A stretch of DNA of 64,000 bases from Phenylobacterium aquaticum (GTDB taxonomy: Bacteria > Pseudomonadota > Alphaproteobacteria > Caulobacterales > Caulobacteraceae): the NCBI RefSeq assembly GCF_947378715.1, contig NZ_CANCLE010000003.1, positions 957 to 64,956 of the forward strand. The letters are read 5' to 3'. Of this stretch, positions 29,683 through 36,147 are shown piece after piece. The notes under the pieces are model-generated. The model saw nothing but the letters and a program-made list of their open reading frames with translations, did not search any database and was not told the DNA's origin. Position numbers and translations under genes: made by a program. Each line of letters starts with the position of its first letter. The first letter of the stretch is position 1.

Positions 29683-29705
29683 AAGTTGACGCCGCCGTCA
29701 CTTTT
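29683..29705. promoter_or_regulatory. Palindromic operator TGACG-ccgc-CGTCA (copy 1)
   Basis: AAGTTGACGCCGCCGTCACTTTT, ending 15 nt before the reductase ATG; 15-mer identical to 34907-34921. Confidence 0.7.
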
Positions 29706-29720
29706 CTGCATGGGGCTGTC

Positions 29721-30950
29721 ATGAGCTCGTCCGACGCGCACGTTGTGATCATCGGGGCGGGGCACGCCGGCGGAACCGCCGCGGCCCTGCTGCGGCAGTA
29801 TGGCTTCGCCGGACCCATCACCCTGGTGGGCGAAGAGCCGATTCCGCCCTATCAGCGGCCGCCGCTCTCCAAGGCCTGGCTGAAGGGCGAGGCCGACGCC
29901 GACTCCCTCGCGCTCAAGCCGTTGGAGTTCTACGCCGAGAACAACATCGACTTCCGGCCGAACCTCAAGGCCGTGAAGCTGGCGCGTTCGGACAAGATCG
30001 TGACGCTGTCCGACGGCGCGACCCTGACCTATGACTTTCTGATCCTCGCCACCGGCGCCCGGGCCATCAAGCTGCCGGTCGAGGGGGCGGACCTGAAGGG
30101 TTTGCTGGAGCTGCGCACGGCGGCCGACGCCGAGGCCCTGAAGGCGACGCTCGGCCCCGGCAAGCGGCTGGCCATTGTCGGCGGCGGCTATATCGGCCTG
30201 GAGGCGGCGGCCTCGGCCCGGTCGCTGGGCGCGGAGGCCGTGGTGCTGGAGCGCGAAACCCGCCTCCTGGCCCGGGTCGCCTGCGAGACCCTGTCGACCT
30301 TCTTCCAGGGCCGGCACGAGGCCCATGGGGTCAGGTTCGAGCTGGGCGCCTCGGTGGTCGGCTTCGAAGGCCGAGACGGCCACGTCACCGGGGTCAAGCT
30401 GGCCGACGGCCGGACCATCGCCTGCGACGCCGCCCTGATCGGCGTCGGCGCGGCGCCTAATGACGAGATCGCCAAGGACGCCGGTCTCGACTGCGCGCGC
30501 GGCATCGTCGTCGACCTGGAGGCCCGCACCTCCGACCCCTCGATCTTCGCGATCGGCGACGTGGCCCACCGGCCGATGCCGATCTATGACCGCATGTTCC
30601 GCATGGAAAGCGTGCCCAACGCCCTGGAACAGGCCAAGCAGGCGGCCAGCGCCATCACCGGCCGCCCGGCGCCGGCCGGCGAGACGCCCTGGCAGTGGTC
30701 CGACCAATATGATCTCAAGCTGCAGATCGCCGGCTACGCCTTCGACGCGGACGAGATCCTGCTGCGCGGCGATCCCGCGACCGGCAAGTTCGCCATCTTC
30801 CATTTGAAGGGCGATCTGGTTCAATCGGTGGAGGCGATCAATTCGCCGCCGGAATTCATGATGGGCCGCCAGCTCATCGGGGCCCGCAGGCCCGTCAACA
30901 AGGCGAAGCTTGCGGATACGACAGTTTCTATGAAAGAGGTCGCCGCGTAA
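29721..30950 (+). CDS. NAD(P)H:ferredoxin reductase (putidaredoxin-reductase type)
   Basis: GAGHAG, PYQRPPLSK, GGGYIGLE, AIGD, WSDQY. Confidence 0.93.
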   Translation: MSSSDAHVVIIGAGHAGGTAAALLRQYGFAGPITLVGEEPIPPYQRPPLSKAWLKGEADADSLALKPLEFYAENNIDFRPNLKAVKLARSDKIVTLSDGATLTYDFLILATGARAIKLPVEGADLKGLLELRTAADAEALKATLGPGKRLAIVGGGYIGLEAAASARSLGAEAVVLERETRLLARVACETLSTFFQGRHEAHGVRFELGASVVGFEGRDGHVTGVKLADGRTIACDAALIGVGAAPNDEIAKDAGLDCARGIVVDLEARTSDPSIFAIGDVAHRPMPIYDRMFRMESVPNALEQAKQAASAITGRPAPAGETPWQWSDQYDLKLQIAGYAFDADEILLRGDPATGKFAIFHLKGDLVQSVEAINSPPEFMMGRQLIGARRPVNKAKLADTTVSMKEVAA

Positions 30951-30971
30951 AAGCTGGCGGGAAGGGGAGAC

Positions 30972-31292
30972 ATGGCCAAGATCACCTATATTGAGCATGA
31001 CGGAACCGAGCACGTTCTCGACGTGAAGGCGGGCCTGACGGTCATGGAAGGGGCGGTGAAGAACAACGTCCCGGGCATCGACGCCGACTGCGGCGGAGCC
31101 TGCGCCTGCGCCACCTGCCACGTCTATGTGGACGCCGCCTGGCAGGACAAGACGGGCGAGAAGTCGGCGATGGAAGAGTCCATGCTGGACTTCGCCGAGA
31201 ACGTCGAGCCGAACAGCCGGCTGTCGTGCCAGATCAAGGTCTCCGACGCCCTGGACGGCCTGGTGGTCCGCCTGCCGGAAAGCCAGCACTAG
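30972..31292 (+). CDS. 2Fe-2S ferredoxin (putidaredoxin/adrenodoxin type)
   Basis: [17 protein letters not shown]...SRLSCQ. Confidence 0.95.
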
Positions 31293-31303
31293 GATAGAGC
31301 GCC

Positions 31304-31466
31304 CTCCCTCCCCTTCCCCCGGGGCGCGTCGCTAAGCGACCCGCCCAAGGGCAGGCATGGGGAGGGTGGATCGCGCATCAGCGCGAGACGGGTGGGGGGC
31401 TGCGAGGTCATCGCGCCCCACCCTCTCCGCTACGCGGCCTGTCCCTCCCCATGAAAGGGAGGGAGA
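31304..31466. repeat. Intergenic palindromic repeat (REP/CIR-like) with nested 40-bp insertion
   Basis: Arms CATGGGGAGGG (31356-66)/CCCTCCCCATG (31443-53), inner GGGTGGGG/CCCCACCC, outer CTCCCTCCC/GGGAGGGAG; sits between convergent fdx and divL. Confidence 0.75.
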
Positions 31467-33876: not shown

Positions 33877-34464
33877 ATGACCGCGATCCTCTATCCCCTG
33901 GCGACGACGCCCGACGCAGCGCTTTCCGCGCCCCTGGGCCGCGCGGCGCGGGAAAGGGAGGCGCAGGCCCTGGCCGGCGAGCCCGTCGCCTTCGTCAGTG
34001 GCCCGGCCGGTCCGGCCTATGCCAGCCGCGAGGCGGCGCTGGACGCCCTGGCCGGACGGATCGAGGACGACCGCCCCGGGCGACTGGTCCAGGTGGCCGT
34101 GGAGGACCGGTTCTGTCGGCTGGTGGAGGTGGCGACCACCCGCCGCGCCCCGCCGCCGGTCGCGACCATCAACCGCGACGGCCGCCGCTGGCCCACCCCG
34201 CCGGTCGCCCCGCCCACGGTCTGGCGCCTGTCGGTCTCCTATTGGCGTCCGGTCTCGGCGGCGCCCGCCGCCGGCGCGCCGGATGTCGATCATCCCCAGG
34301 CCCGCCGCGCGCGGCGGCTGAAGCAGACCGAGGCGGAGCCTGAGACCCTGAAGGCCATGAGCCGCCAGCCCCTGCGCGCCTTCAAGCCGCAGCAGCCGCT
34401 GGACATCGGGCTGTTCGAGGTCCGGCTGCCGGAGAACCCCGACCTGGTGATGCCCGATGAGTGA
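33877..34464 (+). CDS. Hypothetical protein divergent from divL
   Basis: MTAILYPLA...WRLSVSYWR...QPLDIGLFE...MPDE; GC3-biased codons; 8-nt overlap with next gene. Confidence 0.7.
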   Translation: MTAILYPLATTPDAALSAPLGRAAREREAQALAGEPVAFVSGPAGPAYASREAALDALAGRIEDDRPGRLVQVAVEDRFCRLVEVATTRRAPPPVATINRDGRRWPTPPVAPPTVWRLSVSYWRPVSAAPAAGAPDVDHPQARRARRLKQTEAEPETLKAMSRQPLRAFKPQQPLDIGLFEVRLPENPDLVMPDE

Positions 34465-34882
34465 AGCCGATCGCGGCCATATCCATGTCCACGCGCATAG
34501 GCCGGCGCCCTCGCTGGACGACTTCGGAGCCCTGGCCCAGGCGGCCTTCGAGGCCCTGCCCGACGATTTCCGCGCCATGACCGGGGCCGTGATCTTCCGG
34601 GTCGAGGACTTCCCGCCCCAGGAGGTGCTGGACGAAATGGGGATCGAGGACCCTTTCGAACTGACCGGCCTCTATCACGGGGTCGATCTGGCCCACCGCT
34701 CGATCCTGGACCCCAGTCCCGAACCCTCCATGGTGTTCCTCTATCGCCGTCCGATCCTCGATGAATGGGCCGAGCGCGGCGACGTGACGCTGAGCGAACT
34801 GATCACCCACGTCCTGGTCCACGAGATCGGCCACCACTTCGGGCTGTCCGACGACGACATTGATGAGATCGAGGGGGAGTAG
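34457..34882 (+). CDS. Zincin-like metallopeptidase (Zincin_1 type)
   Basis: LTGLYHG, LYRRPI, HVLVHEIGHHFGLSDDD (HExxH). Confidence 0.9.
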   Translation: MSEADRGHIHVHAHRPAPSLDDFGALAQAAFEALPDDFRAMTGAVIFRVEDFPPQEVLDEMGIEDPFELTGLYHGVDLAHRSILDPSPEPSMVFLYRRPILDEWAERGDVTLSELITHVLVHEIGHHFGLSDDDIDEIEGE

Positions 34883-34902
34883 CGCGCGCAACCGCGTCTG
34901 GG

Positions 34903-34925
34903 AAAGTGACGCCGCCGTCACGTTT
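34903..34925. promoter_or_regulatory. Palindromic operator TGACG-ccgc-CGTCA (copy 2)
   Basis: AAAGTGACGCCGCCGTCACGTTT just upstream of a TTGACT -35-like hexamer; identical core to 29687-29701. Confidence 0.7.
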
Positions 34926-35016
34926 CTTGACTTATCGGCGGTCATATGGATTTTTGACGCAGGTCAAAACCGGCGACGCTGACGATCGCCGATGTCTGGC
35001 TTCAGGAGGACGACCG

Positions 35017-36147
35017 ATGGCCGCCGACGGCAACATCACCAAGGACATCATCTACGACGCCGTCGCGCCGGACGACTTCGAGTCCATGCTGGAACTCGAC
35101 CGCTACAACGCGCGGTCGACCGCCTTTGACAAGATCATCTCGGCCACCCACGACCACTTCTGGGATCCGCTCGACAAGAAGTACATCGACTTCGACGAGC
35201 CCTTCGACATGGAAAACCAGATGCTGCTGCCGGAGGAGATGATCATCTCGCTCGGCACCGAATATGTGTCGAACCACCTGAAGGACCCCAAGACCCGCAT
35301 CCGCTTCGCCAACCAGCAGGCCCTGCGCTCGTTCTCCTCGATCCTGCACGGCGAACAAGGCGCGCTGAACCTGTCGGCCAGCCTCTGCCACGTGCTGAAG
35401 GACCAGGGCGCCCAGGAATACGCCGCCAACCAGACCCGCGAGGAAGCCCGCCACGTCACGGCCTTCGCCAAATATATCAAGGCCCGCTGGGGTCGCCCGG
35501 TGGAAGCCGGCCCGACGCTGAAGGCGCTCTTGATCGACATCATCGGCAGCCCCGAGGTCTATAAGAAGATCATCGGCATGCAGATGCTGGTGGAAGGCCT
35601 GGCCATGGGCGCCTTCGCCACCTTCTTCAACAATATCAATGACCCGCTCGGCAAGAAGCTGATGCAGCTGGTCATGACCGACGAGGCTTTCCACCATAAG
35701 TTCGGGAAGATCTGGGCCGACCGCACCATCCCCAAACTTTCCCCGGAAGAGCACGCGATCATCGAGGACTGGGCGGCGCACTGCTTCCAGACCCTGCTGT
35801 TCAACCTCGTGGCCCCCTCGCAGCAGCGCGACCTCTATGAAGAGTTCGGCATGGACCCTGACGTGGTGATGGCCGAGATGGCCGCCATGGTCACCGACGA
35901 GAGCCGTCGGGAGAACATGAAGGAGCAGTCCAACATCTTCCGCGTGCTGGTGAAGACCCTGCTCAATGCCGGCATCATCACCGACCGCACCCGCGCCTTC
36001 TACGCCATCTATGTCGACATGGAGGAGCTGAAGGGCGAGGGCGATCGTATGGTCGGCGACGACATCGCCGAGGAGGGGATCAAGTATCTCCAGGAGATCA
36101 ATTTCAAGGACCGCGTCGCCGCAGCCGTGAAGATCGCCGCCGAATAG
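35017..36147 (+). CDS. Ferritin-like diiron protein (AurF/desaturase-like oxygenase)
   Basis: Carboxylate-diiron ligand pattern: HGEQGA, EEARH, VEGLA, DEAFH; AGGAGG RBS. Confidence 0.85.
   Translation: MAADGNITKDIIYDAVAPDDFESMLELDRYNARSTAFDKIISATHDHFWDPLDKKYIDFDEPFDMENQMLLPEEMIISLGTEYVSNHLKDPKTRIRFANQQALRSFSSILHGEQGALNLSASLCHVLKDQGAQEYAANQTREEARHVTAFAKYIKARWGRPVEAGPTLKALLIDIIGSPEVYKKIIGMQMLVEGLAMGAFATFFNNINDPLGKKLMQLVMTDEAFHHKFGKIWADRTIPKLSPEEHAIIEDWAAHCFQTLLFNLVAPSQQRDLYEEFGMDPDVVMAEMAAMVTDESRRENMKEQSNIFRVLVKTLLNAGIITDRTRAFYAIYVDMEELKGEGDRMVGDDIAEEGIKYLQEINFKDRVAAAVKIAAE

Follow-up and report, generated by a model that had tools for sequence, protein, structure and literature searches.

What connects a ferredoxin reductase–ferredoxin gene pair with a diiron protein gene located several genes downstream in the same stretch of a Phenylobacterium-like genome, and does the palindrome found in both promoters unite them in one regulated system? 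The window, the whole stretch of 64,000 nucleotides that was analysed, is G000:C3:957-64956, where G000 denotes its own genome, represented by an assembly of 4.06 Mb with 68.7% GC. The elements in question are as follows.

29683..29704, strand not assigned: putative operator site 1, upstream of the reductase gene fdR, with the core TGACG-CCGC-CGTCA at 29687-29700.
29721..30950, + strand: ferredoxin reductase (FdR) of the putidaredoxin-reductase/ArR type, 409 aa, with Pyr_redox_2 and Reductase_C domains.
30972..31292, + strand: [2Fe-2S] ferredoxin (Fdx) of the putidaredoxin type, 106 aa, with a Fer2 domain.
34903..34924, strand not assigned: putative operator site 2, upstream of the diiron gene, with the core at 34907-34920.
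35017..36147, + strand: unstudied ferritin-like diiron-carboxylate protein, 376 aa, with predicted ligands E113, E143, H146, E193, E223 and H226.

The palindrome is probably the operator of an unlinked TetR-family regulator, G000:C16:2072-2695, which would control a dispersed CYP153-type system for terminal oxidation of alkyl or fatty-acyl chains, with FdR–Fdx as a shared P450 chain and the diiron protein as a co-regulated member. The initial annotation had proposed that the reductase, the ferredoxin and the diiron protein form one co-regulated system under an unlinked repressor. Co-regulation of fdR–fdx and the diiron gene by such a repressor via a conserved operator-like site is indeed likely, but the system is not limited to these three genes and includes CYP153-like P450s.

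The exact 15-mer TGACGCCGCCGTCAC, on which this proposal was based, was confirmed by a search of the whole genome: it starts at positions 29687 and 34907, both intergenic and flanked by AT-rich sequence, and no further copy is present in the 4.06 Mb. An exact 15-mer repeat is by itself unremarkable, since repeated 15-mers are abundant in the window (170 vs 23-62 in 20 triplet shuffles). Across the genome, TGACG-N4-CGTCA was counted 19 times vs 0-11 times with other spacers, but this raw count is weakened by an arm-swapped control with 15 copies. The placement of the sites is distinctive. The pattern TGACR-N4-YGTCA occurs 28 times in the genome, 22 times outside open reading frames (ORFs), and 10 of these 22 sites have AT-rich flanks, while each other spacer (0-3, 5-8) yields 0-2 AT-rich-flanked sites outside ORFs. 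The two palindromes of the window are part of approximately 10 AT-flanked sites in this genome. The palindrome was judged to be real because of its intergenic placement at N4 and its conservation at orthologous promoters; weight-matrix scans were seeded with the genome's own top matches and are partly circular.

Conservation, proposed in the initial annotation as a check, was found at both promoters. The site is present upstream of 28 of 30 fdR homologues, the two misses being one second paralogue and one decayed right arm, and in each of 14 additional fdR promoters at named loci of Caulobacteraceae. When the promoters were anchored on the left arm only, every one of four right-arm positions was kept in 28 or 29 of 29. 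The site also precedes 39 of 40 copies of the diiron gene (three partial copies were dropped), 88 of the 94 copies, from 80 Caulobacteraceae loci, whose upstream DNA was long enough and, outside the genus, 16 of 30 best copies.

A scan for the motif across the genome and its relatives, also in distant families, revealed sites ahead of P450, diiron and oxidation genes. In the window's own genome, sites precede two CYP153-like P450 genes (contigs C169 and C120), genes of a GMC oxidoreductase and an aldehyde dehydrogenase (ALDH), a gene of the FA_desaturase family, Coq4, a TonB receptor gene and a few unrelated genes. The genome contains 12 P450 genes, at least five of them CYP153-like; the product of the C169 gene is closest to CYP153 structures (6hqg, E 2e-191; CYP153A7, E 6e-174), its best PDB matches being 6hqg, 7ant and CYP153A7. 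With a half-anchored pattern, five genomes from as many other families gave 11-24 strand matches vs 0-1 in the control, and 45 of the 66 flagged ORFs behind these sites were scanned. Separate sites were found there at unlinked genes of FdR, Fdx, CYP153, GMC and ALDH enzymes, Coq4, TonB receptors, flavin monooxygenases and diiron paralogues. In genome G069, an unlinked FdR gene, two Fdx genes and the genes of a P450, a GMC enzyme and diiron proteins all have individual sites; in G198 all three diiron paralogues, a P450 gene and a GMC gene have the site; G043, G275 and G320 contribute Coq4, ALDH, TonB receptors and flavin monooxygenases. This gene set is that of CYP153-type terminal oxidation, as described in PMC8784404, and supports the theme of lipid or alkyl-chain oxidation, which had earlier been put forward as a possibility.

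Two further observations concern the targets. A bacterial gene of the Coq4 family recurs among the regulon members of three families (G000:C135:3432-4205; L226; L259). One site of G198 (L217) precedes a gene for a class I/II aminotransferase, presumably similar to aminolevulinate synthase, an arrangement that could link the supply of heme with the induction of P450s.

Among the 53 TetR-family proteins of the window's own genome, only for G000:C16:2072-2695 was a clear orthologue (47-52%) detected in each of the three distant genomes used for comparison. In 301 genomes drawn evenly across the class, orthologues of this TetR are present in 30. At least three strict sites are found in 14 of the 30 TetR-positive genomes, spanning seven families, vs none of the 271 TetR-negative ones; at least one strict site is found in 29 of 30 vs 43 of 271. 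The regulator co-occurs with CYP153 in 28 of its 30 genomes and with the diiron gene in 23. Gene neighbourhoods point the same way: G120 contains the cassette site-fdx-CYP153...TetR-fdR, with no close diiron match in that genome, and in G204 and G322 the TetR gene directly adjoins the diiron gene. A TetR_N domain and an operator-like palindrome at its own promoter, with a spacer of 2-3 nt, are consistent with an autoregulated TetR repressor. The pattern TGACR-N2-YGTCA occurs in this promoter in 27 of 29 genus orthologues, and a site of variable spacer in 13 of 33 wider TetR loci, the distant ones mostly with a 3-nt spacer; no other of the 53 TetRs has such a site at its own promoter. Taken together, it is quite likely that the C16 TetR binds the target sites. 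The TetRs adjoining the C6 diiron paralogue and the C51 P450 were rejected as the regulator, as they are not conserved in the distant genomes.

As to the regulator locus itself, the TetR gene heads a conserved operon (G000:C16:2072-4721, L385) with an esterase of the hormone-sensitive-lipase family and, in the window's own genome, a quinone oxidoreductase. The TetR's own site (G000:C16:2039; L422-L450; L396-L412) has the N2 spacer and lies just after a -10-like hexamer in the genus, and has the N3 spacer and lies at the -35 element in distant families.

Several points weigh against the TetR interpretation. The site is absent from three of the five CYP153-like genes of the window's own genome, and only 24 of 59 distant diiron copies, paralogues included, have it. 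Some sites precede genes without an obvious link to the pathway (an XRE regulator, Nramp, aminolevulinate synthase and gpsA). The spacer of the TetR's own site is not the 4 nt of the targets, and no variable-spacer site was detected at 20 of the 33 wider orthologue loci. G334 and G055 encode the TetR and lack a strict site. The co-occurrence counts are not independent because the genomes are related, and the regulator candidates compared were the TetRs and one MerR. Finally, the core of the LiuR-type box is identical to that of the palindrome.

The last point leads to the alternative that the sites are GC-centred boxes of LiuR, a regulator of the MerR family, and that the genes behind them are an expanded LiuR regulon. 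The LiuR box is characterized by a T-W-W-A centre with TT/AA flanks. The resemblance to it, with a different centre, pointed out in the initial annotation is real: core and spacing, TGACG-N4-CGTCA, are the same, and the window sites have CCGC instead of T-W-W-A. A LiuR-like MerR is encoded in all five genomes tested, degenerate GC-centred half-sites are located upstream of the liuR-like gene of the window's own genome, and in four TetR-negative genomes (L176, L177, L179, L180) a LiuR-type box takes the place of the palindrome at the diiron gene. However, the liuR-like gene of G069, G198, G320 and G275 is preceded by a box of its own with the T-W-W-A centre and TT/AA flanks, whereas the regulon sites of the same genomes are GC-centred with flanks of the AAAG/CTTT type. 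Strict sites track the presence of the TetR, and G244, from which the TetR is absent, contains several LiuR-type boxes and one strict site. An expanded LiuR regulon is therefore unlikely. The LiuR-type box in the four TetR-less genomes suggests replacement of the regulator, by which the diiron enzyme is again tied to acyl metabolism.

The next question is which enzyme uses the ferredoxin. The best PDB matches of FdR are 3lxd, which we take to be ArR of Novosphingobium aromaticivorans, 1q1r (putidaredoxin reductase) and 3fg2; those of Fdx, which is PuxB/putidaredoxin-like, are 3hui, 1e9m and putidaredoxin. An FAD reductase with Reductase_C and a putidaredoxin-type [2Fe-2S] protein fit a class I P450 electron chain of the PdR/ArR and Pdx/Arx type. 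The genome encodes a single ferredoxin of this kind (one tblastn match at E<1e-5) vs its 12 P450 genes; the ArR-Arx pair is likewise described as supporting several P450s (PMC13627977). In the initial annotation, FdR, Fdx and the diiron protein were a candidate split three-component oxygenase, read here as a dedicated system. Apart from the common site in the fdR and diiron promoters, several facts are in its favour: fdR–fdx and the diiron gene lie 5-15 kb apart in 15 of the 17 genus genomes that have both on one contig (24 examined); genes of a sister diiron family (32% identity, AurF-like) are located directly behind a P450-type ferredoxin gene in 5 of 10 loci (L523-L525, L527, L528), each gene with its own site; diiron and CYP153 genes, found in 40 and 37 of the 301 genomes, respectively, occur together in 28; and aldehyde deformylating oxygenase (ADO) is reduced via a ferredoxin chain (PMC3691600).

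Nevertheless, a dedicated system is improbable, because FdR and its site persist without the diiron protein and the diiron genes of distant loci lack such partners nearby. FdR is encoded in all 36 genus genomes, including three without a diiron match and three with distant matches only; the site is retained ahead of fdR in those examined, and the five of these six genomes that were tested all keep CYP153 with the site. No Fdx, FdR or P450 gene was found within approximately 6 kb of the diiron gene in any of 59 distant loci, and fdR lies within 6 kb of it in just 18 of 80 Caulobacteraceae loci. CYP153 matches are missing from 12 of the 40 genomes with a diiron gene, and in each of these 12 the TetR is missing as well. 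That the pair has the diiron protein as its sole partner was not upheld: the regulon contains CYP153-like P450s, with which reductases and ferredoxins of this type are classically paired. The fdR–fdx pair is best read as a shared CYP153 chain, since it is regulated in relatives that lack the diiron gene and keep CYP153.

It is very improbable that the palindromes are weak intrinsic terminators or mere -35 elements of adjoining genes, for although a consensus scan lists both sites as terminator-like, both come after a + strand gene and the left arm at the fdR promoter reads TTGACG, the sites fold weakly (-7.3 and -11.7 kcal/mol over 33 nt), variation of the fifth pair is mostly one-sided (23 A-C or G-T vs 2 compensated among 189), sites also lie between divergent genes (C169, C84, C120, C135), and the full palindrome is located downstream of a separate TTGC(A/C)A in Caulobacter-labelled loci and upstream of a separate TTGAC at diiron genes.

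For the operator interpretation, the layout of the two promoters is informative. In the fdR promoter the left arm doubles as a -35 hexamer at 29686-29691, 35 nt ahead of the ATG; this short distance predicts a leaderless promoter, and the sequence suggests an operator covering the -35 element and the spacer. Site 2 lies 6 nt 5' of the -35-like hexamer TTGACT (34927-34932), and TTGAC follows the site by 5-9 nt in 87 of 94 orthologous diiron copies. As the sites overlap the -35 element and are loosely spaced, repression would fit better than activation. The diiron leader also contains the only FixK/FNR-like box of the window, TTGAC-N4-GTCAA at 34954-34967; it is not conserved, as just 7 of the 94 upstream regions of orthologues contain any box of this kind. 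In RNA data, three metatranscriptomes gave small shares only (0.05-0.17).

Among named homologues, the one nearest to the diiron protein is from Phenylobacterium aquaticum (97%). The AlphaFold2 model of the diiron protein has a pLDDT of 89.9, and the fold matches are a tie between R2lox (Z 20.4, rmsd 3.9, 247 aligned), AurF (Z 20.2, rmsd 3.7, 285 aligned), R2 and CmlI (Z 19.9 each), at 10-15% identity; Foldseek gave weak matches, the best with E 5e-4. The predicted model contains a four-helix bundle with E, ExxH, E and ExxH, typical of 2-His/4-carboxylate diiron oxygenases, the ligand roles being assigned from the motif, and the predicted ligands are kept in 35-36 of 36 aligned sequences. The protein is accordingly predicted to be of the 4Glu/2His diiron type and neither an AurF nor an R2. 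In class Ia/Ib R2 proteins the radical Tyr is located four residues past the first His ligand; this position is F150 in 30 of 36 sequences and Tyr in one, which excludes identity with R2. The AurF/CmlI N-oxygenases have a 3-His/4-carboxylate site with a second motif of the HxxxExxH type (PMC12101540); the corresponding position 219 is V, I, A, T or L in 36 of 36 sequences and never His, and the PF11583 score of 28.4 bits is below the cut-off of 29.6, so this identity was also ruled out. So was ADO (TIGR04059, 22.4 vs 222.65 bits; PF11266, 22.9 vs 28 bits); the AurF and Ald_deCOase profile matches are weak and under the cut-off.

The diiron family is large, with 5709 matches among 8000 scored candidates. 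A fusion search revealed two related proteins, members of a divergent subgroup with 42-45% identity, that combine an AMP-binding and a diiron domain; it showed no carrier domain in them and no fusion of a diiron domain to ferredoxin or reductase. Such acyl-activating fusions hint at an acyl substrate, and the best guess for the diiron enzyme is a lipid-chain hydroxylase or desaturase. Most probably it oxidises a lipid chain, and it may, with slightly less than even odds, use the single ferredoxin as a shared electron source.

Other features of the family were also observed. Tandem duplication of the diiron gene is common in the genus, and most duplicates have a site of their own. A second diiron paralogue (76%) at G000:C6:22616-23740 is located behind another TetR gene and has no N4 site. 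Divergent homologues (P0128, P0147, P0148, P0126, P0138, P0271) are fused to an unannotated N-terminal domain of approximately 190 aa, a TubC_N docking domain or an AMP-binding domain. In distant families, a gene of an MMPL/RND-family transporter is often divergent from the diiron gene (L463, L464, L466, L467, L471, L248, L266).

A regulon controlled by the TetR could work as follows. With no inducer, a TetR dimer would cover the -35 region at each target, and a lipid ligand, a fatty acid or acyl-CoA, would free the DNA of the repressor, by analogy with AlkX. The substrate would enter via the TonB receptor, NAD(P)H-FdR-Fdx would supply CYP153 with electrons for omega-hydroxylation, and the GMC enzyme and aldehyde dehydrogenase would convert the alcohol to the acid. 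Within the same programme, the diiron enzyme would hydroxylate or desaturate a lipid chain, and it may be a missing step of this oxidation pathway. More speculatively, this could be a widespread alphaproteobacterial TetR regulon in which CYP153 genes at scattered loci are joined by a new family of soluble lipid oxygenases of the diiron type that borrow the P450 ferredoxin, so that one chain serves heme and non-heme oxygenases; its regulator might read half-sites at N4 on the targets and at N2-3 in its own promoter, perhaps depending on its ligand state.

The remaining features of the locus are the following.

29668..29680, strand not assigned: second palindrome, CRAAC-N3-GTTYG, just 5' of the fdR promoter, a possible site of a second regulator.
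31471..33789, - strand: DivL-like PAS kinase between the two sites, outside the system, with Tyr in SYELRTPL.
36166..36209, + strand: strong hairpin, a likely terminator, 3' of the diiron gene (-37 kcal/mol, z -4.0).

The gene order is sdhB, site 1, fdR, fdx, the DivL-like kinase gene, a hypothetical gene, a zincin gene, site 2 and the diiron gene. No P450 or Rieske oxygenase gene adjoins fdR–fdx, as the initial annotation stated. CC_3525 is described as a ferredoxin reductase following sdh genes (PMC3751524).

The second palindrome, in the form CRAAC-N3-GTTYR, was found with the partly circular weight-matrix seeds in the promoters of fdR, three other CYP153-like genes, GMC, Coq4 and the second diiron paralogue (in G000, C6:22559, C183:2995, C205:901, C84:15845, C135:3410 and C143:6107). 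Many diiron orthologues have TGAAC-N3-GTTCA between the -35 and -10 elements. The second palindrome possibly belongs to a second regulator, which may be PsrA-like, this palindrome being the better fit to PsrA. No PsrA model was present among the NCBIfam matches of TetR C16:2072-2695 at E<=1e-10.

Caulobacter and other Alphaproteobacteria commonly possess CYP153 genes (PMC4021335). These genes often lack adjoining partners or regulators, and the regulon offers candidates for their regulator, operator and electron chain and for the enzymes that accompany them. It also provides a functional context for a large unstudied diiron family, a candidate for a new C-H oxidation enzyme. Precedents exist for class I CYP153 chains, for shared ferredoxins and for TetRs that sense fatty acids. 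As a dispersed regulon, the combination of this operator with this TetR and the diiron family is apparently new: no description of the motif, the regulator or the diiron enzyme was found in the literature searched, and an earlier prediction in the RegPrecise site lists or in Kazakov 2009 is possible.

The diiron protein shares the fold (Z 13-20) and the paired ExxH motifs with AurF/CmlI, R2lox, ADO and acyl-ACP desaturase; it differs from them in its 10-15% identity and in the absence of the third His of the N-oxygenases and of the R2 radical Tyr. LiuR and PsrA control global palindromic regulons of acyl metabolism, and both are listed for four Caulobacterales genomes (PMC5343134). The centre and flanks of the sites described here differ from theirs, although the LiuR-type core is identical, and the available supplement text of PMC5343134 contains no 'cytochrome P450' or 'ferritin' target. 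AlkX of Dietzia is a TetR repressor of alkW1 released by C10-C24 fatty acids (PMC8784404). Compared by description, it resembles the C16 TetR, as proposed here, in acting at oxidation genes; unlike that regulator, it is local, has AlkB-type targets and belongs to Actinobacteria. The FdR–Fdx pair is similar to ArR-Arx of Novosphingobium aromaticivorans, where one pair serves several P450s; the available part of that account mentions neither a shared operator nor a diiron client (PMC13627977). The closest similarity is to class I CYP153 systems, with which the regulon has in common the three-component chain and the regulated terminal oxidation of alkyl chains, its P450 being nearest to 6hqg and CYP153A7. 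In Alcanivorax and Dietzia, fdx-cyp153-fdr operons are controlled by CypR of the AraC family (PMC8784404). In contrast to such operons with an AraC activator, the parts are scattered here and would be joined by the palindrome and the TetR, and the regulon additionally includes the diiron protein, Coq4, a desaturase-like gene and TonB receptors.

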